Positions 3,115 through 34,781 of a stretch of 64,000 bases of DNA are shown here, in pieces. A model generated the notes under the pieces. It saw nothing but the letters and a program-made list of their open reading frames with translations, searched no databases and was not told the DNA's origin. The translations under genes were made by a program, and so were the position numbers. This DNA is from an uncultured delta proteobacterium (GTDB lineage: Bacteria; Desulfobacterota; Syntrophia; Syntrophales; UBA2185), in assembly GCA_963729715.1 (NCBI GenBank), contig CAVSPA010000006.1:1-64000 (forward strand), given 5' to 3'. Every line of letters starts with the position of its first letter. The stretch's first letter is position 1.

Positions 3115-3459
3115 TTATATCAAGGGGTTAGCCGACGACTGATGTCTTTCGAGGGGGTCTAAGGCGGGATTTGTGACAAAATGTGACACAACTTCTTTTT
3201 GGGGAGCGGTTAATCCATTCAAGAGATTGACCGCTTTCTTTTTATGCTCCTGACTCAGATGAGCATATCTAAGAGTCATTTGCATCGTCTTGTGTCCTAA
3301 CAATTCCTGAACATCTTTTATGCTTGCACCGTTCATCAATAAATGACTTGCAAACGTCAAGGCGCAGTCGACATCGTGGCCAAAATCGCTTAGTATGCGA
3401 TGGAACGTGTTACATACGTCCTCGTCATCATCTATAACCAAGATTCTTCCGATATTCAT
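3115..3459 (-). pseudogene. Chimeric remnant: receiver-domain N-terminus fused to integrase C-terminus
   Basis: MNIGRILVIDDDEDVC (receiver beta1 and acidic pocket) joined in frame to TFASHLLMNGASIKDVQELLGHKTMQMTLRYAHL. Confidence 0.8.
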
Positions 3460-16689: not shown

Positions 16690-16804
16690 GACTGTGAGAA
16701 AGATTTCTCAAGGCTTCCGGTGTAAGCAACATTTCATCAGGCAATCAAGAGATGTCATCAATTTTCAAATCAGATAATTTTATTTTATAAGTTATACCGA
16801 TTCC
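16690..16804 (+). repeat. Diverged non-coding direct repeat, copy 2
   Basis: Shared blocks AGATTTCTCAAG.CTTCCG, ACATTTC, AATCAA.AGATGT.ATCA, AGATAAT. Confidence 0.65.
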
Positions 16805-16977
16805 ATATAAATCATGTCTATTTATGAATATACCGAATTGCTGAGTTGTTTTCCACGATTTTAGAGAATTCTTTAATTCATTCCGCTTGACATATATATT
16901 TGTTTGATTTTTCATGTATCAAGTACGAAAATAAAAGTTATGTGCTCAAGGCAATCTGCGTAAATAGAAATGACTTA

Positions 16978-18551: not shown

Positions 18552-18823
18552 AGGTTTCATTCTGTAACGTCTTTTTTTTTTGCTACCTCGTGTGAAATGT
18601 TTGTAAATTCGCTCTGGCCGCTCCTAAAATAGCTGCCCATTCTGTGCCCTTTATGCAACATCTCAAACAGAGATAATATTGGCGTCTCACCGCACGCCGT
18701 GGTCAGTTATTTCATTGATTTATCACAAATATTTCTATATAGTTCCCAGCCTTGAGAGTAACTTCTTGTACTATAATAATAACAATTTAGGGCACATTGC
18801 GGCAAATTGTCAGGAGGCAATCC

Positions 18824-20287
18824 ATGATAAGAAAATCCCTCTTGTTTCTCCTCATCGCCTTACCCATTACCGCCTGCACTTATAGTGGGAAGATTCTGCT
18901 GCCAGAGGATACATCGTCGGCTATGCTCCAAAAGGGTAAGTACGACCTCAAGGCGGCCATTGTCGTCACACCGCAGCAGGAGGGAGAGAAGGTGAGGCTG
19001 CAGGGCGGCTTTGAATTCAAGCCGTACCCGGAGATGTATCAATTAGCACAGCAAAAATTTAAGAAGCTGTTTTCGACTGTCGAAATCGTGAATACGGGTG
19101 AAATGGTCAAAGACAGGTATGATGTCCTGATAAACTCATCATCCGAATTCTCCCTTGGACATGACTACGAATTGCGCGACACGATGTTTGAGGTGAGTTT
19201 TTTTACGGAATGGATTGATCCAAAGAGCGGTAGCGCGATATTCAGGACATCAAACAAGCAGGAGAAAAGATTCAATAGGAACGAAGGGGAAGAAGCTACC
19301 TATGGACAGGCGGCGACTCTTTTGTTGACAGCTCCCGTGTCAATACCGATGTCTCTGTACAAAAATAACCAATACAGCGAAAAGACGGTGAGTGCTATGC
19401 TTGCAAAGGCAATGGATGAAATGATTGACGAGCTGCCTCGAAACAAGAAGTTCATCGCACTTACCGAAGGATACAAGCCTGGGAAACCAACGGGGATTGC
19501 TGCAGTCAAGATTATCAAATCCGACGTTGACGAGCTGCCGGCGTTTAAGGTTAAGCCGAGGAAGAACGCATACGCGGTCGTTATAGGGATTGAGAATTAT
19601 CGTCAGAAGCTGCCTACGGCGGATTTCGCGACGCATGACGCACAGACGATAACGGAGTACCTGGTGAAGGTGTTTGGCTATCCTGAAGAGAATGTTATTA
19701 CGCTTCTGAACGATAATGCCTCTAATGTTGATCTGGCGAAGTATTTTGAGAAGTGGCTGCCGAACAATGTGGAGCCCAAGGGGACGGTGTTTGTTTATTA
19801 TTCAGGCCATGGCGCGCCAAATCCCAAGACGGGCGATGCCTACATTGTGCCCTACGACGGCGATCCGTCATTCATCGACCAGACGGGATATTCATTGCAG
19901 CGTCTTTACAATGCCCTCGGCAGGCTTCCGGCGAAGGAGATAGTTGTGGTGCTTGATTCCTGCTTTTCCGGGGCGGGCGGAAGATCGGTGCTGGCGCAGG
20001 GGGCGCGGCCTCTGGTGATAAATCTGGAGAAGGTCTCCGTTCTGCCCAAGAACCTAGTTGTCATGTCAGCCGCTTCTGGCGATCAGATAAGCTCGACTTA
20101 CCGGGACAAGGGACACGGCCTTTTCACGTATTTCATGCTCAAAGGCATCAAGACCGAGGATGTGACACGTGCGGACGGCACAATCAGGATGGACGATCTC
20201 TTCGGCTATGTGAAGCCCCAGGTCGAGCGGATCGCGAGGAAGCAGTACAACAACGAACAATCACCGCAGTTGATAGGACAGAAATAG
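18824..20287 (+). CDS. Lipoprotein with C-terminal caspase-family (C14) domain, copy 1
   Basis: GGAGG RBS; lipobox ITAC; YAVVIGIENY, YYSGHG, LDSCFSG. Confidence 0.88.
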   Translation: MIRKSLLFLLIALPITACTYSGKILLPEDTSSAMLQKGKYDLKAAIVVTPQQEGEKVRLQGGFEFKPYPEMYQLAQQKFKKLFSTVEIVNTGEMVKDRYDVLINSSSEFSLGHDYELRDTMFEVSFFTEWIDPKSGSAIFRTSNKQEKRFNRNEGEEATYGQAATLLLTAPVSIPMSLYKNNQYSEKTVSAMLAKAMDEMIDELPRNKKFIALTEGYKPGKPTGIAAVKIIKSDVDELPAFKVKPRKNAYAVVIGIENYRQKLPTADFATHDAQTITEYLVKVFGYPEENVITLLNDNASNVDLAKYFEKWLPNNVEPKGTVFVYYSGHGAPNPKTGDAYIVPYDGDPSFIDQTGYSLQRLYNALGRLPAKEIVVVLDSCFSGAGGRSVLAQGARPLVINLEKVSVLPKNLVVMSAASGDQISSTYRDKGHGLFTYFMLKGIKTEDVTRADGTIRMDDLFGYVKPQVERIARKQYNNEQSPQLIGQK

Positions 20288-20292
20288 GAGGC
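19515..20292 (+). repeat. 778-bp near-perfect repeat encoding the caspase domain, stop codon and next RBS (copy 1)
   Basis: Matches 21145-21922 with two synonymous differences found by eye. Confidence 0.92.
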
Positions 20293-20297
20293 GGCTT

Positions 20298-21917
20298 ATG
20301 AATCGATGTATCGCAATTGCCCTCAAGGGATTCGTCATCTCCTTTTGTTTTGTATTTCTGCTTGCCCATCTCTCGGGCTGTGCTACCACACCCGTAGAGC
20401 CTTCACCCTTGATGATGGCAATAAAACAGAATGACAGCGCACGCATAAAGACCTTGTTCGAAAAGAGCACAGACATCAATGGGACCGATGGCAAAGGATG
20501 GACGGCGTTGACATGGGCTGCATACACGGGTCGGGCGGATATTGTCAAGCTGCTCCTCGACAAAGGCGTGGACGTTTATGGAAACGACCTGAATATTGCA
20601 GCACAGAGAGGCGACGTCAATATCGTCAAGCTCTTGCTCGCTAAAGTAAAATTCGGCAATGAAAGCCTGGTTACAGCAATGCGCTCCGCGGCGGTTGCGG
20701 GGCATGCCGATGCAGTTAAGCTGCTGATAGATAGCGGCGCTGATCCAAACATTCTTTACAGGGGCACTTCTCAGACCGCCCTCATGCTCGCCGCTCAGAA
20801 TGACCGCGCCGATGTCATCCAGGTGCTTCTTGACAATGGTGCAAATATAAATGCAAAAGAAGCCTCTGATTCATGGACGGCGTTAAGCTGGGCAGCCTAT
20901 AAGGAAAACCCTGATCTTGTCAGACTCTTCCTGAATAACGGCGCCGACGCCGAACTGGCGCTGGCAGCCCTGGAGGCCTACGCCGGCAAATGGGCGAACA
21001 GCAGCGCCGATAACGCCGCAAACGAAAGCACAAGAACCAAGCTCGGCATCAGGCTCATCGAAACGTTTGCAAGAAAGAAAGGCGTCGCGCAGTCAACGCC
21101 AACGGCCGCCGGCGTGAAGAGTGAGCTCAAGCTGGCTCCTGTCGTCAAATCCGACGTTGACGAGCTGCCGGCGTTTAAGGTTAAGCCGAGGAAGAACGCA
21201 TACGCGGTCGTTATAGGGATTGAGAATTATCGTCAGAAGCTGCCTACGGCGGATTTCGCGACGCATGACGCGCAGACGATAACGGAGTACCTGGTGAAGG
21301 TGTTTGGCTATCCTGAAGAGAATGTTATTACGCTTCTGAACGATAATGCCTCTAATGTTGATCTGGCGAAGTATTTTGAGAAGTGGCTGCCGAACAATGT
21401 GGAGCCCAAGGGGACGGTGTTTGTTTATTATTCAGGCCACGGCGCGCCAAATCCCAAGACGGGCGATGCCTACATTGTGCCCTACGACGGCGATCCGTCA
21501 TTCATCGACCAGACGGGATATTCATTGCAGCGTCTTTACAATGCCCTCGGCAGGCTTCCGGCGAAGGAGATAGTTGTGGTGCTTGATTCCTGCTTTTCCG
21601 GGGCGGGCGGAAGATCGGTGCTGGCGCAGGGGGCGCGGCCTCTGGTGATAAATCTGGAGAAGGTCTCCGTTCTGCCCAAGAACCTAGTTGTCATGTCAGC
21701 CGCTTCTGGCGATCAGATAAGCTCGACTTACCGGGACAAGGGACACGGCCTTTTCACGTATTTCATGCTCAAAGGCATCAAGACCGAGGATGTGACACGT
21801 GCGGACGGCACAATCAGGATGGACGATCTCTTCGGCTATGTGAAGCCCCAGGTCGAGCGGATCGCGAGGAAGCAGTACAACAACGAACAATCACCGCAGT
21901 TGATAGGACAGAAATAG
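20298..21917 (+). CDS. Lipoprotein with ankyrin repeats and caspase-family domain, copy 2
   Basis: Lipobox LSGC; GWTALTWAA and TALMLAA ankyrin repeats; C14 domain identical to copy 1. Confidence 0.9.
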   Translation: MNRCIAIALKGFVISFCFVFLLAHLSGCATTPVEPSPLMMAIKQNDSARIKTLFEKSTDINGTDGKGWTALTWAAYTGRADIVKLLLDKGVDVYGNDLNIAAQRGDVNIVKLLLAKVKFGNESLVTAMRSAAVAGHADAVKLLIDSGADPNILYRGTSQTALMLAAQNDRADVIQVLLDNGANINAKEASDSWTALSWAAYKENPDLVRLFLNNGADAELALAALEAYAGKWANSSADNAANESTRTKLGIRLIETFARKKGVAQSTPTAAGVKSELKLAPVVKSDVDELPAFKVKPRKNAYAVVIGIENYRQKLPTADFATHDAQTITEYLVKVFGYPEENVITLLNDNASNVDLAKYFEKWLPNNVEPKGTVFVYYSGHGAPNPKTGDAYIVPYDGDPSFIDQTGYSLQRLYNALGRLPAKEIVVVLDSCFSGAGGRSVLAQGARPLVINLEKVSVLPKNLVVMSAASGDQISSTYRDKGHGLFTYFMLKGIKTEDVTRADGTIRMDDLFGYVKPQVERIARKQYNNEQSPQLIGQK

Positions 21918-21922
21918 GAGGC
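21145..21922 (+). repeat. Caspase-domain repeat, copy 2
   Basis: Offset 1630 bp from copy 1. Confidence 0.92.
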
Positions 21923-21926
21923 CTGT

Positions 21927-23363
21927 ATGAAAAGGAACATGCTGCTTTTTCTCCTTATCTTATTGATGACAACATCCTGTTCATACAGTTATACCTCAAA
22001 GATCGCGCTTCGGGATGAGGGTTCTCCGGCTGCGCAGCAGAAGGCAAAATATGATCTGAAAGCGGCAATTGTCGTCACGCCTGAACAAATGGAGCAGGCC
22101 ATGACCTATAACTGCGCCCTGATAAGCATACACATAGGATTCAGACCGTATCCTGAAATGTATCAGCTTATGCAGAAAAAAATTAAGAATGTGTTTTCCA
22201 CCGTTGACATCGTACCAGCGAATAAACTTCTCAAAGAGAATTACGATGTCCTGCTGAACAGCAAATTCAGCGCAGAGAAGGGCTATGAGATGGTGATGAG
22301 TTTGGCCATGTACGGCATCAACGCAAAGAATGGAGACATGCTTTTTGGAATCACCAGCAATCAAAAAGGAGACCCGGAATTCAACAAGATTATCCCGCTT
22401 CCCGGAACAATACCTACCGTTATCGGCCCCAGTTGCGGTAAAGGTTATGACAAATTATTAACTGAGATGGTTTCCACGGCGCTGGACGAAGGTGTTGAAG
22501 CGATGACAAAGAACTGGAAGCTTGCATTGTATGCGAAGGGCGCAAGCTATGAGGTGGCAGAAAAAGGCCCTACCCCTGCGGTCGTCAAATCCGACGTTGA
22601 CGAGCTGCCGGCGTTTAAGGTTAAGCCGAGGAAGAACGCATACGCGGTCGTTATAGGGATTGAGAATTATCGTCAGAAGCTGCCTACGGCGGATTTCGCG
22701 ACGCATGACGCGCAGACGATAACGGAGTACCTGGTGAAGGTGTTTGGCTATCCTGAAGAGAATGTTATTACGCTTCTGAACGATAATGCCTCTAATGTTG
22801 ATCTGGCGAAGTATTTTGAGAAGTGGCTGCCGAACAATGTGGAGCCCAAGGGGACGGTGTTTGTTTATTATTCAGGCCACGGCGCGCCAAATCCCAAGAC
22901 GGGCGATGCCTACATTGTGCCCTACGACGGCGATCCGTCATTCATCGACCAGACGGGATATTCATTGCAGCGTCTTTACAATGCCCTCGGCAGGCTTCCG
23001 GCGAAGGAGATAGTTGTGGTGCTTGATTCCTGCTTTTCCGGGGCGGGCGGAAGATCGGTGCTGGCGCAGGGGGCGCGGCCTTTAGTCATGAACTTAAAAA
23101 GCGCAGAGCCTGCACGCCGCAATATGGTGATCCTGTCTGCCACCTCCGGCAGCCAGATCAGCTCTACATACAGAGAGAAAGGGCACGGGCTCTTCACTTA
23201 TTTTATGCTCAAGGGCATCAAGAATGAAGAGGTCGTAAGGCAGGATGGCTCCATTGCAATGAGTGATCTATTCGGTTACTTGAAACCTCAAGTGGAGCGT
23301 ATTGCAAGGAAGCAGTACAACAACGAGCAACTGCCGCAATTGATCGAGCCGAAGAAGAATTAG
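21927..23363 (+). CDS. Lipoprotein with caspase-family domain, copy 3
   Basis: Probable lipobox TTSC; N-domain homologous to copy 1 (KYDLKAAIVVTP, PYPEMYQL, FSTV, YDVL); His/Cys dyad. Confidence 0.88.
   Translation: MKRNMLLFLLILLMTTSCSYSYTSKIALRDEGSPAAQQKAKYDLKAAIVVTPEQMEQAMTYNCALISIHIGFRPYPEMYQLMQKKIKNVFSTVDIVPANKLLKENYDVLLNSKFSAEKGYEMVMSLAMYGINAKNGDMLFGITSNQKGDPEFNKIIPLPGTIPTVIGPSCGKGYDKLLTEMVSTALDEGVEAMTKNWKLALYAKGASYEVAEKGPTPAVVKSDVDELPAFKVKPRKNAYAVVIGIENYRQKLPTADFATHDAQTITEYLVKVFGYPEENVITLLNDNASNVDLAKYFEKWLPNNVEPKGTVFVYYSGHGAPNPKTGDAYIVPYDGDPSFIDQTGYSLQRLYNALGRLPAKEIVVVLDSCFSGAGGRSVLAQGARPLVMNLKSAEPARRNMVILSATSGSQISSTYREKGHGLFTYFMLKGIKNEEVVRQDGSIAMSDLFGYLKPQVERIARKQYNNEQLPQLIEPKKN
22581..23081 (+). 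repeat. Caspase-domain repeat, copy 3 (partial, ~500 bp)
   Basis: Appears identical to 21141-21641, then diverges after the GARP codons. Confidence 0.9.
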
Positions 23364-23832
23364 GAGGAGTGTGAAAAAATCATTGAGCTGGCACAATCGT
23401 CCCTTTTCCTCTTGAACGATGAGAACTAAGAACGAAATGTGAACGGTTCTAATGACGAGAATGGTCTTGCCATCATTTAGGGCTTGACATTGATTATTCC
23501 AGCATCTACCTAATACACCGTAATTATTACATAGACATAGACATAGACAATTGAACCATAACCCTTGAACCGTTCTGCGAGGGAAGTATGGAGCGATTAT
23601 CGAGACCCCGTATCTCAAAACAGAGAGCGGGGTTTTGTGTTTCCTAGGGAAAAAAAGAAAATACAAGATATTACCCTTGTCTCATTGATCGTATTCTGCC
23701 TCCCGCAAGTGCGCCAAGTCTCTTCCGCCAGGTTATGGCTCTGCACTCGAACTATGCCTTTTTCTTGCGCCGTAAACATGGTGTCCTCCTGCTTTCTGAA
23801 GATATTATCTGTAGAAGGAAGGCATCCTGTTC

Positions 23833-25157: not shown

Positions 25158-26501
25158 GTGTTAGTCATGTCAGCGCTTATTTGCCTGCTCTCGCTGTCAA
25201 CGGCTTACGCGGCCCCGGCCGCAGCCCAGAAGACCACGCAGCAGAGCACGCAGCAGGTGAAACCGGCTACAGGCACCGTATCTAATCTGTTGAACCCTAA
25301 TGCGCCGCCGCAGGGCACCATCACTATAACGCCCTCCAGCAAAAACAACGTCAACGCATCGACCTGCTTTACCGGCAGCTACCAGTACATAGAATGGACC
25401 TGCACCGGCACCCGCTCCAATCTGGTGGACATAACGCTTTGGAAGGATAACCAGAAAAAGATCACTATCGGCAACGGGGTGGCGGGCACACCGCTTATAC
25501 GGTCCCGTGGGACACTGCTCCGGGCCAGTACGAACTCCGAATTACCAGCGAGGACGATTCCCGTGTAGAAGCAAGGCAGCCTGTTAGTGTTATTCTCACA
25601 ACGGTAACCATCACAACGCCCAAGCCAAACGATACTTGGTACGCAGGCGGGACATACCAGATTGCGTGGGAGATCCAAGGGACGCAAACGAAAGTTGACG
25701 CATTTATCTTGTCGTCGGCCACAAACAATCTTACGAGCATCAGTACAGGGATAACAGCGGAAGCATTAATTTCACAGTCCCTCTGAGCTTTATCGGGACT
25801 ACCTACGATCTGGGCTACCTCGTGGGAGTCTACGCAACGGGTGCACAGGGGGGGGGTGGGCAGGAATGAAGCAAAAGGTGTATGTTTTGCCGCCCACTGT
25901 GACTATTACCTCGCCACTGGCCGGCGCTTCATGGACGACAGGAATTACGCATCTGATAACTTGGCAGTTTACAGGCAATCCCGGTCCACTGAAAATTGAA
26001 CTGTTTAACGCCTCCAACTCATTTATTATCGCCGATAACCTTCCGCCAGGCGCCTCCGGCTCCGGGAACTATCTCTGGAAAGTTATCGGTTTGACGAATG
26101 CACCCTACCAGGTGAGAATCACAAGCATGACCCTTGGTTCCATCACGACCTCCAGCCCGCCTGTAAATATCACGAACCCCCCGATCCCATACGTTAAGTG
26201 GTTGCGGCCGTACTGCGGGAACGTCGGTTGTTATGCGGTAATGGGAAAGCCTTTATACATTCAGTGGTCGTCCGCCGCTTGCGGAGACACAATTGATATT
26301 TCTATTACTGATAATACTCAGAATAGTGCTGCGGTAGGCACGCAGTATCTTTCTGTGAAGCAATTTCCCATAAGCGGTGGGCAATAAACGTGGGTGCCGC
26401 CAGTGCCTCCCGATTCATATACAGGGTCACGAGAATATCTTATCAACCTGACTACTTCGGGCGGTTGTCATGACTCCGGCTCTGTCTATGAGTATCAATA
26501 G
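25158..26501 (+). pseudogene. Frameshifted secreted Ser/Thr-rich protein with repeated Ig-like domains
   Basis: Signal peptide; VTITTPKPNDTWYAGGTYQIAW and VTITSPLAGASWTTGITHLITW modules split across frames; in-frame TAA at 26385. Confidence 0.65.
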
Positions 26502-30162: not shown

Positions 30163-31755
30163 TCATTTCTTGCGGAGTAATTTGGGGACGGTGCCCGGCT
30201 CCGGACTGAAGGCCACGCCGTTTTCGAGGATCAAGGTATTCAGCTCCTTATCACTCAAGTATCGCCGCTGCAGAGGGCCGTCATTGGCATCCATCATCTC
30301 GTACCAAGTTTCACCGCCATGAAGAAAAGCCTTCGTGAGCACAACCTCATGTCCGACCAAGCTGCTGCCGGTATTATGAGCCACGTTCACTAAAACCGGC
30401 CTCCCCTCCTTGAGCATACTGGCGAAGCCGGAAGGGGGAACCACCTCGGCGCGACCAAAGGCTTCGGCCTCCATAATCACTTCACCGCCGATAAGGCCAC
30501 CCTTCTCGATGGCTTTCTGTGGATTTGCTCGATCTTCGGCGCTGCGCCATTCACCCTCGCGAATGATCTCTGCCGCGCGCGCTGCCACCACTCCGTAGGG
30601 CAGGCCCGCGGCATTGGCCAGGGCGAAGATGGTGCAGTCATTGTAACGGGTCTGCTTTCCTGCACCCGGCATGCGCGTGCCCTCGCCCCGAGATGCCTCC
30701 TGCGCAAGCTTCCTGTCCTGGGCGCGGGCAAAAATATTCTGCCAGGCCTCGTTGATCTGGGTTCCTGTCACAATGGAATCATCGGCAAGGTCCAACCCGT
30801 TCAATGCTTTATCGAGACGTTCAAGTTTCTTCGCGCTCCAACCGAGACGTTTGGCCTGGGCATAGATGCCGCTGATCACGGCATCCGCTTGCATGCGTGC
30901 CTGTGCGCCCTGCGTGTTTGTCCTGCCCTTCACCACATTGGGGTCAACTACATAGGGCGCCTTTTTGTCGCGAAGGTCAACTACCTTGGAGTCTGTTATT
31001 GGCGCCTGACGAGACGCCTCGTTTGGGTCGCCCATGATGAGGGCCAGGTTATCGCCCGGAGCGGCAGCAGTCGTTGCCGAATATCCCTGGCGTGGCCTTA
31101 AATCAACAACTCGGGAATCATTATTAACGCCGGCAGACGAACCACCCGCGCCGCCGCCCGTGCCGAAGAACGACGTCCCCTGCGGGCGAAGGCCGCTATC
31201 ACTATCTCCAAGCATAAGGGCAGGGCCGTCAGACTTTTGGCCATCGAACCCTTCGGAGAGTTGGATTTGCGTGGAAAGACGATCAAATGTTTCCTGCTTT
31301 TTGTGGGCTTCCTCTGCCGCTCGTATACGGGCTTCCACCTCTGCCATTTGGCGGGCTGCCTCTGCGGCTTGTGCCTGCTCCGCGGTCTGCATTTGCTGTT
31401 CCGCCCGCTTGCGCGCTTCTTCCTGGGGATCGCCGAATAGCGCCTTGCCGAGTGACTGCCCAAAGTTGTATCCGAGGTTATAAAAGGGTTGGGCAAGGCC
31501 AGCGGCGGCGCCGCCACTCGAAGATCCACCCCTTCCGCCCCAGTTCGGACCGGGCGTACACGAAGGATTACCGCCCGACATGCTGAACTTCCCGTTGCAG
31601 GCCTCACACCATGATTGATACTGCCTTGCCCAGGCGGGACCGTAAGAACCCGTGGGCGGGCTGCTGCAGTTCTGCGCCATCGCCGTGTGAGTCGTCACCA
31701 CCATCGTACAGATAACTATAAAGGCAACAGCCGGTATAGGGAATTGTTTCTTCAT
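30163..31755 (-). CDS. Exported protein with a C-terminal papain-like (C39-like) cysteine protease domain
   Basis: Signal peptide; QTRYNDCTIFALA, GHEVVL, MMDAN as putative Q/C/H/D residues. Confidence 0.65.
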   Translation of the reverse strand: MKKQFPIPAVAFIVICTMVVTTHTAMAQNCSSPPTGSYGPAWARQYQSWCEACNGKFSMSGGNPSCTPGPNWGGRGGSSSGGAAAGLAQPFYNLGYNFGQSLGKALFGDPQEEARKRAEQQMQTAEQAQAAEAARQMAEVEARIRAAEEAHKKQETFDRLSTQIQLSEGFDGQKSDGPALMLGDSDSGLRPQGTSFFGTGGGAGGSSAGVNNDSRVVDLRPRQGYSATTAAAPGDNLALIMGDPNEASRQAPITDSKVVDLRDKKAPYVVDPNVVKGRTNTQGAQARMQADAVISGIYAQAKRLGWSAKKLERLDKALNGLDLADDSIVTGTQINEAWQNIFARAQDRKLAQEASRGEGTRMPGAGKQTRYNDCTIFALANAAGLPYGVVAARAAEIIREGEWRSAEDRANPQKAIEKGGLIGGEVIMEAEAFGRAEVVPPSGFASMLKEGRPVLVNVAHNTGSSLVGHEVVLTKAFLHGGETWYEMMDANDGPLQRRYLSDKELNTLILENGVAFSPEPGTVPKLLRKK

Positions 31756-31780
31756 TTATCCGCTCCCTTCATCACGGTCT

Positions 31781-32740
31781 TCATTCTTTCGCCTTTCCCT
31801 CCCAGAGGTACATCTTCTCTCTTGCGGCTTTGGCGTTCTGGGCATCGGGGACGAGCTCGAGATAACATCTCATATGGAGTAAGGCCGCTCCGTAATCTTT
31901 GATCTCCCCGTAAAGCAAAGCAGCATTGAACTGCCCCTGTGGCCACAATGGTTCAATTGCCAACCCTTTTTCGTAGTAATCGATGGCCTTCTCGAAGTCC
32001 TTATTCATGAATGCGTCCTCGGCCATTACCCGGTATCGCTGCACATTCTCGGGCAGTGGGGGCTTCACCGTCAAGTCACGCCATGTCTTCGCGGCCGCAC
32101 TGAACGTAGCAAACTCTTCGTCCTGACGTGCGGCGTATAGAAGTCGATTGAACGCATCAGCAAACTTCTCCGCTGATGTCTTGTTTCCCCATACAAGTAC
32201 TGGGTAATTGGAAGGCCAGGGCTCAGGGGTGGCAACCCCGTAGAGTCTCTTCGGTATCTCCAGTTCATAAACACCATTCGAAAACGTTGGATCTAACGAG
32301 TAAGCCTGCATGTACTTTGTGGCTTCTTTGAAACTCACGGACATCTGTACATCATAGCGCTTGTCGGAATAGGCGGCAACCCTTTCAGTATATGATGAAG
32401 TGAAATGGAAGCCGGTGGGGCCGATACGGACGCCGGTCACCTTTTCAAACACTACCATCCCATCACACAGTTTATTTCCAATGAGTCCCTGGAATCCTTC
32501 AGCCAGACGGCAGGATTTAGCGGTCCCGACATATTTGTTGTTTATGGCCTCTTTCAGTTGAGCGCGAGCTTGACGAATTGAAAGAGCCATTGAGTCTCCC
32601 GGAGGGGGATCGCCTCGCCAAACCGAAGGAATGCCGCCTGCCGGAGTATTGCCTCCCTGAGTCTGTGCCATCAGGTTTGATGGAATCGCAGCCACGGTCA
32701 GCAGCACAACCAGCGCGCACAACATATTCCTGTTGCTCAT
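31781..32740 (-). CDS. Exported protein with C-terminal TPR domain (paralog 3)
   Basis: Signal peptide; AEDAF.NKDFEKAIDYYEKGLAIEPLWPQGQFNAALL...YLELVPDA. Confidence 0.85.
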   Translation of the reverse strand: MSNRNMLCALVVLLTVAAIPSNLMAQTQGGNTPAGGIPSVWRGDPPPGDSMALSIRQARAQLKEAINNKYVGTAKSCRLAEGFQGLIGNKLCDGMVVFEKVTGVRIGPTGFHFTSSYTERVAAYSDKRYDVQMSVSFKEATKYMQAYSLDPTFSNGVYELEIPKRLYGVATPEPWPSNYPVLVWGNKTSAEKFADAFNRLLYAARQDEEFATFSAAAKTWRDLTVKPPLPENVQRYRVMAEDAFMNKDFEKAIDYYEKGLAIEPLWPQGQFNAALLYGEIKDYGAALLHMRCYLELVPDAQNAKAAREKMYLWEGKAKE

Positions 32741-32872
32741 TTGATCATCCCTCCTGATTGTTGATGTCCCGATTTCGCCACGAATGATAGCAGTCTTGTC
32801 GTCTTGCGAGTTCATCAATAGAAAAAGTGTTCAAATGCTTCATCGAGTTTCCCCGCTCTTGGACCTTGTGAA

Positions 32873-33850
32873 CTATTGTGTACTCGCCTCTTTCGCCTTT
32901 CCCTCCCAGAGGTACATCTTCTCCCTTGCGGTTGTGGCGTTCTTGGCATTGGGGACGAGTTCCAGATAACGTTTCATATGCAGGGCAGCAGTTGCGTACC
33001 TATTCAACTCACCATCAAGCATAGCGGCGTTGAAGTGGCCTTGCGGCCATAGAGGTTCAATCGCCAACCCTTTTTCGTAGTACATTACCGCCTTCTCAAA
33101 ATCTTTATTCTTGAATGCGTCCTCGGCCATTATCCTGCACCGCTGCACATCCTCGGGCAGTGCGGGTTTCACCGTCAAGGCGCGCCATAACTTCGCCTTC
33201 TTTTGGAAATCGGCAAACGACAAGGCCTCATCTTCGGGTTTGTAGCCTTCGGTGTATCTCTTCAGCACATAAAAAGCTTTGGCTAAAGAGACGGCTTCAT
33301 CCCTCTTGAGTGAACTCCAAAAGGTATCTGTTGCGCTTGTATCCCCGCTGTTTCTGCTTCCCCCGTGCTGCACCTGCTTGATGCAACCGTGGTACCATGG
33401 GGCAGCCTCACACGGAAGTACATTGAATGTCCCATACACATGACTTTTCTCGACATGGGGATCCATTGATCTAAAACCTGACGTACAAGCCCAAAATAGT
33501 TTCGGATAGACTTGATCCCAGGTTATCTTGTCGGAGCTTATCGTGATGTTCTTCATCAAGGGGGTATTATAAGTGGAGGCATTCCAGCCGGGAGGAATCT
33601 GCTCCCGGCGGTTTTCCATAGACTCTATTATTTTACGCGCCTGGGAATATGACATCGTCAGGAGCACGTCGTCATTCGGCCTATACACTACTTCGTCTCT
33701 TTGCGCATCATTCGGATTGAAGGCTAAACTTGGCTGAAGACTGATAAGTAAGGTCATGAGGGATAATGTTAGGGACAGACATAAAATAGCGCACAAATCT
33801 AAGCGGCCCTGTCTCTTAAAAACCTTCCGGTATCCCATCTTCATTATCAT
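32873..33850 (-). CDS. Exported protein with C-terminal TPR domain (paralog 2)
   Basis: Hydrophobic N-terminal segment; same TPR block; start uncertain. Confidence 0.85.
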   Translation of the reverse strand: MIMKMGYRKVFKRQGRLDLCAILCLSLTLSLMTLLISLQPSLAFNPNDAQRDEVVYRPNDDVLLTMSYSQARKIIESMENRREQIPPGWNASTYNTPLMKNITISSDKITWDQVYPKLFWACTSGFRSMDPHVEKSHVYGTFNVLPCEAAPWYHGCIKQVQHGGSRNSGDTSATDTFWSSLKRDEAVSLAKAFYVLKRYTEGYKPEDEALSFADFQKKAKLWRALTVKPALPEDVQRCRIMAEDAFKNKDFEKAVMYYEKGLAIEPLWPQGHFNAAMLDGELNRYATAALHMKRYLELVPNAKNATTAREKMYLWEGKAKEASTQ

Positions 33851-33857
33851 GATCCTT

Positions 33858-34781
33858 TCATTCCCTCTCACCGGTAATCTTTTGCTGCTCCTCCTTAGCT
33901 TTTTCCTCCCAGATGTATATCTTCTCCCGCGCGGCTGTGGCGTTCTGGGCATTGGGGACGAGTTCGAGATAACGTTTCATATGAAAGACAGCCCAACTGT
34001 ACCATTGCGATTCACCTTCGAGCATGGCGGTATTGAACTGTCCCTGAGGCCACAGTGGTTCAATGGCCAGCCCTTTTCTGTACCATTCGAGGGCCTTCTG
34101 CAACTCTTTGTTCTTGAATGCGTCTTCTGCCAGTATCCGGCACTTCTGAACTGCTTCGGGCAGAGCGGGCTTAACCGCCATCTCGCGATACCTTTTGGCT
34201 TCGTTTGCAAATGCGGCCTCCGCAGCAGGATCACTCTCGGGCACGGGTACGTATCCTTCCGCGTAGCGTTTTAGAACATAGAAGGCATTGGCCAAAGAAA
34301 CCGCTTCGTACTTATTCGTATAGGTCCAAAAAGGTTCGCCGTAAAAAGGAGTTTCCTTCAGACCTCCCCCACGGCCCTGCGATTTAACGTTACCGAGAGT
34401 TACGGGAAATTCCCCATTGTCCCGACCCGTCACAGCAATCTTCATAGACTTCACATGTAACGTGCTGACATACCAGAGATCCATGCACTCTTTACGCCAA
34501 GTCACTTTGTCGAAGCTTATTACGATGTTCTTGATTATGAATGGACCGGCGAGCCCAGGAATCGGCGTGCTGCGGTTTTCCATGGACTCTATTATTTTAC
34601 GCGCCTGCGCATACGGCATCGTCTGTAACACCTCGTCAGTCGGCTGATAAACTACTTCGTCTGCCTGGGCCAGACCTGTCTGAAAGCCGATTAATATAGT
34701 AGCGGCGGATAATACCATGAACAGATACGCGATGGAGTGGAAATATAAGCGGCCGTGTTTCACGCAAAGCATCCTCTTCAT
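33858..34781 (-). CDS. Exported protein with C-terminal TPR domain (paralog 1)
   Basis: Signal ending AQA; same TPR block. Confidence 0.85.
   Translation of the reverse strand: MKRMLCVKHGRLYFHSIAYLFMVLSAATILIGFQTGLAQADEVVYQPTDEVLQTMPYAQARKIIESMENRSTPIPGLAGPFIIKNIVISFDKVTWRKECMDLWYVSTLHVKSMKIAVTGRDNGEFPVTLGNVKSQGRGGGLKETPFYGEPFWTYTNKYEAVSLANAFYVLKRYAEGYVPVPESDPAAEAAFANEAKRYREMAVKPALPEAVQKCRILAEDAFKNKELQKALEWYRKGLAIEPLWPQGQFNTAMLEGESQWYSWAVFHMKRYLELVPNAQNATAAREKIYIWEEKAKEEQQKITGERE

Follow-up and report, generated by a model that had tools for sequence, protein, structure and literature searches.

A 64,000-nt stretch of DNA from an uncultured delta proteobacterium of the Syntrophales (GenBank assembly GCA_963729715.1, contig CAVSPA010000006.1, positions 1-64,000; the window) contains an array of three genes that encode predicted lipoproteins, each of which joins a variable N-terminal domain (the front) to a protease cassette of the caspase-like C14 family (Table 1). 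The three open reading frames (ORFs) lie on the forward strand, separated by 10 and 9 nt, and a GGAGG ribosome site is present inside both gaps. The original prediction, made from the DNA sequence alone, described three coupled genes, each having a lipobox Cys, a variable N-terminal domain, and an intact C14 His/Cys dyad, and inspection of the ORFs together with Pfam searches confirmed this description. The ankyrin repeats reported for gene 2 were also found (PF12796, E 2.7e-36), and the diverged domain said to be shared by genes 1 and 3 is 35% identical between the two proteins (E 7e-32) and matches no Pfam family. The promoter match upstream of gene 1 is the best of 12 sites in the region and agrees with the consensus at 10 of 12 positions, the shuffle expectation being 6.1 sites. 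The genes are unlikely to be integron cassettes, as the 9-10 nt between them leave attC sites no room.

Table 1 Features of the three-gene array (positions are those of the window; aa, amino acids).
Feature	Positions	Strand	Description
Promoter match	18752..18780	+	Sigma70-like, TTGAGA-17-AATAAT, 5' of gene 1; consensus match only
Gene 1	18824..20287	+	487 aa from an ATG behind AGGAGG; predicted lipoprotein, CsgG/PelC/PqiC-like N-terminal domain plus C14 protease
Gene 1 signal peptide	18824..18877	+	Predicted to end at lipobox ITAC (C18), from the sequence and the family-wide lipobox rule
Gene 1 N-terminal domain	18878..19474	+	Approximately residues 19-217
Protease cassette copy 1	19515..20292	+	KSDVDELP motif through stop codon, including the ribosome site that follows
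Cassette copy 1 residues			D272, H329 (19808-19810), D378, C380 (19961-19963), loop R387 and R395
Gene 2	20298..21917	+	539 aa; predicted lipoprotein (LSGC, C28), ankyrin repeats plus C14 protease
Protease cassette copy 2	21145..21922	+	Dyad H381 (21438-21440) and C432 (21591-21593)
Gene 3	21927..23363	+	478 aa; predicted lipoprotein (TTSC, C18), gene 1-like N-terminal domain plus C14 protease
Gene 3 identical tract	22581..23081	+	501 nt, identical to gene 2 positions 21141-21641
Gene 3 dyad	22878-22880, 23031-23033	+	H318 and C369
Possible relic of partner gene start	23364..23417	+	Ribosome site, GTG, Lys, Lys, stop after 14 codons

The protease half of each of the three proteins scored 54-56 bits against PF00656 (cut-off 21.4 bits) over profile positions 3-223 of 233. 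Homologs were collected as a family set of 120 members, kept from 152 hits by requiring 43% identity or more and an alignment of no fewer than 200 residues; identical proteins and the duplicate of the window were dropped, and some loci from near-duplicate records remain. The catalytic His and Cys and the two Asp residues of the pocket (the equivalents of D272 and D378 of gene 1) are invariant in all 120 members. D272 was aligned to the Asp of the yeast metacaspase, and the role of the Asp pair in the specificity pocket is given in the accessible text of PMC6426788. The gene 1 protein was modeled with AlphaFold2 using 8 sequences (mean predicted local distance difference test score, pLDDT, of 68.6). 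Its protease half aligned with the structures of metacaspase 4 (Z 20.4), MALT1 (Z 18.9), and GSU0716 (Z 18.7), and MALT1 filled the top ten matches in a Foldseek search with the gene 1 model. The caspase fold, the dyad, and the two acidic pocket Asp residues are all present, and on these features the cassette belongs with the C14B bacterial metacaspase-like proteases. Cleavage after Arg or Lys is predicted for the domain, and self-cleavage is predicted at conserved basic residues of the loop that follows the catalytic Cys, where Cys+7 (R387 in gene 1) is Arg or Lys in 118 members and Cys+15 (R395 in gene 1) is Arg or Lys in all 120. This loop (residues 382-404, which include both positions) is of low confidence in the gene 1 model. 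Self-cleavage at the border between front and cassette was set aside, because the Lys of KSDVDELP is Lys or Arg in only 74 of the 120 members. Orthocaspases in the strict sense have a p20 region only and no p10 region, as defined in the accessible text of PMC6426788, whereas the Pfam and structural alignments of the array proteins run to the C-terminus. An Ig (immunoglobulin)-like domain in the same chain, as in a paracaspase, was found neither by Pfam in the three genes nor in the gene 1 model.

Each lipobox Cys lies behind a basic and then hydrophobic N-terminus. The TTSC of gene 3 is noncanonical at -3, with the Cys kept in seven of eight aligned sequences. When a lipobox rule of our own was applied to the family, it was satisfied by 89 of the 113 members having an intact 5' end and by 16 of 408 other long ORFs of the same loci, a background that includes non-genes. 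Of the remaining 24 members, 19 have a signal-like N-terminal segment and five have neither. Asp was found at +2 in none of the 89 lipoboxes, a lack that under the E. coli +2 rule indicates an outer membrane destination. Lipidation, followed by Lol-dependent delivery to that membrane, is predicted for the family. The genome that carries the window (G000) encodes Lgt, LspA, LolA, and Omp85, and thus the host should be able to make outer membrane lipoproteins. An envelope location had been proposed earlier, and at the level of prediction it gains support from the lipobox statistics, from these host genes, and from the fold of the N-terminal domains.

That fold was obtained by structure prediction of the N-terminal domain, a step the original prediction had called for. 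In the gene 1 model the domain aligned with the curli-complex chain 6LQH_A, which we take to be CsgG (Z 10.8, root mean square deviation 3.7, 143 residues aligned), and also with an HpaA homolog, XCC0632, and PelC (each Z 10.3), PqiC (Z 9.4), and LptE-type proteins (Z ~8.3). These matches are envelope lipoproteins, several of which form rings. The domains of genes 1 and 3 are thus predicted, with moderate model confidence, to have the CsgG/PelC/PqiC/LptE-type envelope lipoprotein fold. As in the CsgG, PelC, PqiC, LptE, and HpaA proteins, the domain lies directly behind the lipobox Cys, and it aligns with its best matches over 120-165 residues (Z 9.3-10.8), whereas the array domain is only 5-13% identical to those proteins and is fused to a protease. 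The model contains a low-confidence, moderately hydrophobic insert at residues 153-183. The gene 1-type front is rare. A search of 1.84 billion representative sequences gave six matches, of which one, a repetitive protein, was judged spurious and two were short fragments. The three full-length matches carry the array cassette (P0006), a more distant cassette subtype (P0008), and a tetratricopeptide repeat (TPR) tail (P0007). No sequence link between the gene 1/3 front and other fronts emerged from local profile searches, and an Atlas search with this front returned only unnamed clusters at 0.90.

Across the family the fronts are highly varied. The 118 members classified fall into 22 front classes: ankyrin repeats, assigned by a motif rule (60 members), a linker only (eight members), and 20 others that include DUF2846, DsbC-like thioredoxin, TPR-PDZ, S41-PDZ, and CARDB domains. 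These are generic binding or scaffold folds. When the classes were placed on a cassette tree of 118 rows, 43 changes of class were counted (the minimum possible being 21); the tree is a quick maximum-likelihood tree with many open branches and the class changes were counted without a shuffled control. Two or more members are present in 25 of 83 loci, and 21 of these 25 mix front classes. The proposal of a constant protease with exchangeable fronts is borne out by these counts, and the survey of homologs did not show the alternative pattern of singletons with a fixed N-terminal domain. Such a distribution could also arise if the cassette were merely a recombination-prone module that fuses to any upstream lipoprotein gene, so that only the anchor matters and the diversity of fronts is a neutral by-product. 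The marked heterogeneity of the fronts would suit this explanation, as would their lack in eight of 118 members, the broken copies present in several loci, and the occurrence of the gene 1-type front on an unrelated TPR tail. However, ankyrin fronts recur over the whole tree, several other classes recur on separate branches, and an independent relative has an intact gene 1 front with 79% conservation. We therefore consider the neutral explanation quite improbable. As a separate observation, front class N1 is preceded in eight loci (L075, L088, L091, L092, and L097-L100) by a conserved stand-alone lipoprotein that matches no Pfam family.

The cassettes themselves appear to record recombination. 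Copies 1 and 2 have 2 mismatches over 778 nt, each at a third codon position. The gene 3 cassette is a mosaic with a sharp border: beyond the 501-nt identical tract its identity to gene 2 is ~72%. In 48 other within-locus cassette pairs of the family identity did not exceed 89% and identical runs reached at most 107 nt, versus 201-498 nt here. The three window cassettes form one clade (SH-aLRT, the Shimodaira-Hasegawa-like approximate likelihood ratio test, 100) despite their differing fronts. The near-identity might be an artefact of assembly, in that repeats were collapsed or over-polished, in which case the genes would be real and the conversion signal would not. Comparable identity is seen in none of the 48 other pairs and no single contig covers the whole array, as an artefact would allow. 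Contigs from public sequencing runs argue otherwise. The pieces from runs X1-X3 match the window at no less than 99% and are interrupted where the repeats begin or end: the X1 piece stops at 21922, the X3 piece stops 30 nt inside the repeat, and the X2 piece begins directly past the 19642 difference and has a depth about twofold that of its surroundings. Run X6 gave separate gene 1/2-type and gene 3-type contigs, both covering 19855-20011, which among the differences listed have five differences from the window in common and differ from each other at five sites. Run X7 similarly contains distinct yet mutually close paralog contigs, and the gene 3-type sequence of X6 as well as that of X7 diverges past 20011, the same border as in the window. 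Of the strain differences listed, 33 of 40 are at third codon positions. Within each strain the paralogs track one another, which is the pattern expected of gene conversion. The junction of genes 1 and 2 was also found in X6, and the array therefore predates the identity of its cassettes. Coming from other samples, these contigs favor gene conversion that is still under way over collapse during assembly, and we regard the artefact as very improbable. The locus thereby catches recombination between cassettes and shows how a repertoire may be renewed. Moreover, the array amounts to a natural domain swap, with two unrelated front types on an almost unchanged protease, in which effects of the front on activation, location, and substrate can be examined.

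The original prediction stated that no substrate gene is evident in the window. Outside it lies a conserved candidate: an exported protein of ~274 residues having a DUF4384 domain is the only gene family that recurs in more than eight family loci. This partner is 57-92% identical across phyla, lies directly 3' of a protease gene in 31 of the 79 loci that have room for it, and is present anywhere in 37 of 83 loci. The window array has no partner, whereas G000 carries two copies elsewhere. One is in a second array (C4:693873-698570, L001) having the order ankyrin-protease, short linker-protease, DUF4384 partner (at C4:696214-697038), ankyrin-protease, and the other follows a DsbC-like thioredoxin-protease gene on C5. 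The short reading frame 3' of gene 3 (Table 1) may be a relic of the start of a partner gene, a weak suggestion based on likeness by eye to the junctions at G000 C4:696214 and C5:425928. Of 41 related genomes, 12 carry a close cassette (50% identity or more over 140 residues or more), and all 12 have a close partner (in two pieces in one case). In two more genomes the partner either adjoins a cassette fragment or lies at the end of a contig, and no close partner is present in the remaining 27. In three fetched stretches of 5.5-8.5 kb the partner was found without an adjacent protease gene, which fits use in trans. Of three stretches checked, two have distant partner-like genes that adjoin distant C14 genes.

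The partner model (pLDDT 77.3) contains an Ig-like sandwich that matches macroglobulin domains (Z 8.7-8.8), together with an N-terminal domain having a weaker Lpp20-like match (Z 7.0). The matches of that N-terminal domain (Lpp20, Tip-alpha, and BP26 at Z 7.0; flagellar-motor lipoproteins at E 0.11-0.51) are below the trusted level. A partner-specific insertion considered as a protease-binding element was rejected, because distant paralogs align across it. No full-length fusion of partner and protease was found among 7996 longer candidates, which is weak evidence. Fusion of DUF4384 to cyanobacterial orthocaspases is given in the accessible text of PMC7475262, and in that of bioRxiv 10.1101/2022.08.17.504292 DUF4384 is the C-terminal domain of some Csx30 orthologs, is often fused to proteases, and Csx30 is the substrate of the caspase-like Csx29.

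The constancy of the partner bears on a further explanation, in which the proteins are offensive, surface or vesicle-borne proteases directed against neighboring cells, the fronts pick the target, and the DUF4384 partner inhibits the protease to protect the producing cell. A constant partner is present in every close-cassette genome examined, a pattern expected of an immunity gene that guards against a constant toxin domain. The surface adhesin HpaA is among the fold matches of the fronts, and C-terminal caspase domains have been proposed as toxins in secreted polymorphic toxins (accessible text of PMC3482391). However, no delivery domain was found and no secretion gene recurs beside the loci. 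The partner is often unlinked and in the G000 C4 array it lies inside the array, not after each gene. Finally, it is the N-terminus that varies, whereas in polymorphic toxins the C-terminus does. We consider offense improbable.

The genomic distribution of the family is broad and patchy. A scan of species-representative genomes gave 184 confirmed matches, from which 76 loci of 67-80% identity were kept. By their titles the family loci belong to Thermodesulfobacteriota, Nitrospirota, Nitrospinota, Elusimicrobiota, Myxococcota, and Pseudomonadota, and thus to at least six phyla. G000 has four close copies besides the window array, making seven in one genome, plus three distant C14 genes elsewhere. 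Its C4 array lies between IS110 transposase genes and an integrase gene, with an FGE-sulfatase-type gene upstream, and the cassettes of that array are only 72-73% identical in DNA sequence. A search of 10 other genomes of the genus did not recover the N-terminal domain DNA of the window array. The named flanking genes of the family loci are mostly housekeeping genes; toxin-antitoxin-type genes make up 13 of 141 flanking ORFs (at eight loci), a count that has no control and is a lead only. Relatives of the cassette in viral contigs numbered only two (30-33% identity), and none above 39% identity was found in plasmids. Carriage by phages or plasmids was rejected, as these relatives are few and distant and the partner was found in no viral contig or phage collection; the Atlas label of Uroviricota on one partner-like cluster was not supported. 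An X6 contig that joins 18586 to 23576 was considered as an empty insertion site and was left unconfirmed, because one side is of 32 nt beside a multi-copy element; six loci of the genus fetched by way of the hydrolase gene downstream of the array had no further flank match.

This distribution is the main ground for choosing between two roles in the envelope. In the first the proteins would be maturation or quality-control proteases of the clostripain and gingipain kind, constitutively active and merely placed by their fronts. The family uses ordinary envelope domains as fronts (CsgG/PelC/LptE-like, DsbC-like thioredoxin, DUF2846, TPR-PDZ, S41-PDZ, and CARDB), cassette and partner are strongly conserved across phyla, the named neighbors are mostly housekeeping genes, and secreted clan CD enzymes process surface proteins (accessible text of PMC3482391), all of which fit such a role. 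In contrast, a housekeeping function sits poorly with the patchy distribution (only 12 of the 41 related genomes have a close cassette), with N-terminal domain DNA that was not recovered from the 10 other genomes of the genus, with seven close copies in one genome, one cluster being flanked by IS110 and an integrase, and with the uncontrolled count of toxin-antitoxin-type neighbors. We judge the maturation role to be somewhat unlikely.

We favor the second role, at a probability of roughly 45%: the proteins would be lipid-anchored envelope proteases with Arg/Lys specificity, swappable fronts, and a shared DUF4384 partner, and their job would be conflict at the cell surface. Three intact caspase-fold proteases bearing different fronts would be anchored by lipid in the cell envelope and would cut after Arg or Lys. 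Binding or clustering of the fronts may switch the protease on by proximity, as in MALT1 and the initiator caspases. The shared exported partner, supplied in trans from elsewhere in the genome, could act as a docking substrate or as a regulator. The repertoire would be renewed by homologous recombination, with fronts exchanged by crossover in the flanking cassettes, as each internal front of the array sits between two homologous cassettes. The least secure step is the last, in which foreign or damaged envelope proteins would be recognized and proteolyzed at the cell surface. Surface conflict is preferred because of the patchy distribution, the multiple copies, the mobile-element flanks, and the uncontrolled toxin-antitoxin-type neighbor count, and a surveillance role for the array is something that we only infer. 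A more specific version, in which the array is an envelope caspase signaling system having a recombining receptor repertoire, ligand clustering activates the proteases, and the soluble Lpp20-like/DUF4384 protein is a common substrate or adaptor, is unlikely as it stands. If true, it would bring the immune logic of variable sensor and constant effector to the periplasm, for use against predators, epibionts, and incoming toxins.

Several observations weigh against surface conflict. The predicted folds of the N-terminal domains of genes 1 and 3 are those of structural or adhesive lipoproteins rather than of known sensors, the quality of the gene 1 model (mean pLDDT 68.6 from 8 sequences) is moderate, and eight of the 118 members carry a short linker in place of a front. 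No effector gene recurred beside family arrays in the survey of flanking genes, and the partner is absent from 46 of 83 loci, the window array included. The 41 related genomes are kin rather than independent and are mostly fragmented. Near-identical cassettes are atypical for the family, as judged by the 48 other within-locus pairs, and the read contigs are short, mostly of depth 2-7, may come from a mixture of strains, and none covers the whole array. The NCBIfam model caspase_w_EACC1 (NF047832) scored below its cut-off (87-89 versus 140 bits) and nothing else scored above a family cut-off. PADLOC returned only generic caspase and ankyrin models.

To our knowledge, the characterized bacterial caspase-like defense proteases act in the cytoplasm. 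The cytoplasmic enzymes are not known to carry export signals and have a known trigger and a death effector. The original prediction had set the array apart from characterized bacterial caspase-like proteases on the ground of location; in this general form the distinction must be softened, as exported homologs and operons of three copies are already in print. The accessible text of PMC3501461 (2012) describes 46 bacterial caspase homologs that follow a single N-terminal helix, possibly a signal peptide, and proposes that they act at the cell surface; it also reports operons in which a deltaproteobacterium has as many as three copies. Secreted caspase-like domains are treated as processing or toxin domains in the accessible text of PMC3482391. 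In the open full-text literature no caspase lipoprotein with a DUF4384 partner was found to be described; subscription papers lie mostly outside this scope and the supplements of PMC3501461 and PMC3482391 may list the architecture. The accessible parts of PMC5756287 and PMC6426788 contain no description of a lipoprotein-plus-partner system, and Doré et al. (PMC10907252), as far as its accessible text goes, concerns other systems. The family would thus consist of C14B proteases that were relocated to the envelope, carry interchangeable fronts, and share one conserved partner, and it is apparently uncharacterized as a system. An exported family in which the catalytic residues are kept in 120 of 120 members, together with one exported partner, offers a two-component handle on the role of a caspase fold in the envelope.

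Comparison with known systems places the family among the bacterial metacaspases and orthocaspases (C14B, PF00656; for example, Microcystis MaOC1 and Geobacter GSU0716, PDB 3BIJ), with which it shares the fold, the dyad, the pocket Asp pair, and varied accessory domains. In contrast to the proteins surveyed in the accessible text of PMC3501461, PMC5756287, and PMC6426788, the array family has a lipid anchor, a sharply bounded C-terminal cassette, lipoprotein-type and ankyrin fronts, a separate DUF4384 partner, and gene conversion between copies. The MALT1 paracaspase (caspase-Ig3) is alike in being the top Foldseek match and in the predicted Arg specificity, and it too is associated with an Ig-like sandwich, which in the array family is provided by the DUF4384 domain of the partner. 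However, the array proteins are exported rather than cytosolic and are 17% identical to MALT1, and kinship of DUF4384 with Ig3 is without evidence. Csx29-Csx30 of type III-E CRISPR systems, the EACC1 caspases, and the gasdermin proteases likewise consist of a caspase-fold effector and a dedicated, co-inherited partner, and some Csx30 orthologs end in DUF4384, the domain of the array family's partner, as far as the accessible source text goes. No CRISPR, gasdermin, or EACC1 genes were seen to recur beside the family loci. Pfam, which may miss bacterial gasdermins, found none in 39 ORFs of the window or in 141 flanking ORFs, and a genome-level gasdermin search gave no match in G000, nor did it in any control genome. 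Polymorphic toxins, as treated in the accessible text of PMC3482391, are likewise exported, multi-domain proteins with cassette recombination in which caspase-like domains occur, whereas the array family has the reverse polarity (a constant C-terminal enzyme and a variable N-terminus of 22 classes), its copies are all full genes with their own signals, and it has one constant partner instead of paired immunity genes. No gene lies between the three ORFs, and the single constant partner is missing from over half of the loci, as given above.

The window contains a second array of similar design on the minus strand (30163-34781), in which three ORFs begin with a signal-like segment, vary in the middle, and share a constant TPR tail of ~105 residues that is 65-75% identical between them. 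These are followed by a 530-residue ORF having a signal-like start and, by eye, a C-terminal Cys...His...Asp arrangement of the papain or C39 kind; its C-terminal part gave no match in Pfam or the Protein Data Bank (PDB). P0007 joins the gene 1-type front to the TPR tail of this array. In another genome (G021 C7) a three-gene TPR-tail array is followed by a protein that has the common N-terminal half (62% identity over 211 residues) and a different C-terminus, and G006 C145 has a similar arrangement; a gene with a constant N-terminus and a variable C-terminus beside TPR-tail arrays resembles a polymorphic toxin. An ORF at L125:354-2060 (G018 C39) links both types of module: behind a signal-like start it joins a different caspase-like domain (AGHG and DACR motifs by eye) to a segment 41-44% identical to the TPR tail.

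Elsewhere in the window, Rfam found three tRNAs and nothing else. A non-coding inverted-repeat element of ~85 nt lies at 23560-23643, with no Rfam match, 13 more matches in G000, and many in the genus. A repeated intergenic element at 16690-16920, 5' of an amino-acid permease gene, has five more partial matches in G000 and matches across the genus. On the minus strand at 1590-2848, two overlapping ORFs (186 and 233 residues) without a Pfam match look by eye like a regulator and a nucleotidyltransferase of the type IV toxin-antitoxin kind, and an integrase fragment adjoins them at 3115-3459. Finally, an exported-looking protein with Ig-like domains at 25158-26387 is apparently split into two ORFs of 136 and 173 residues.

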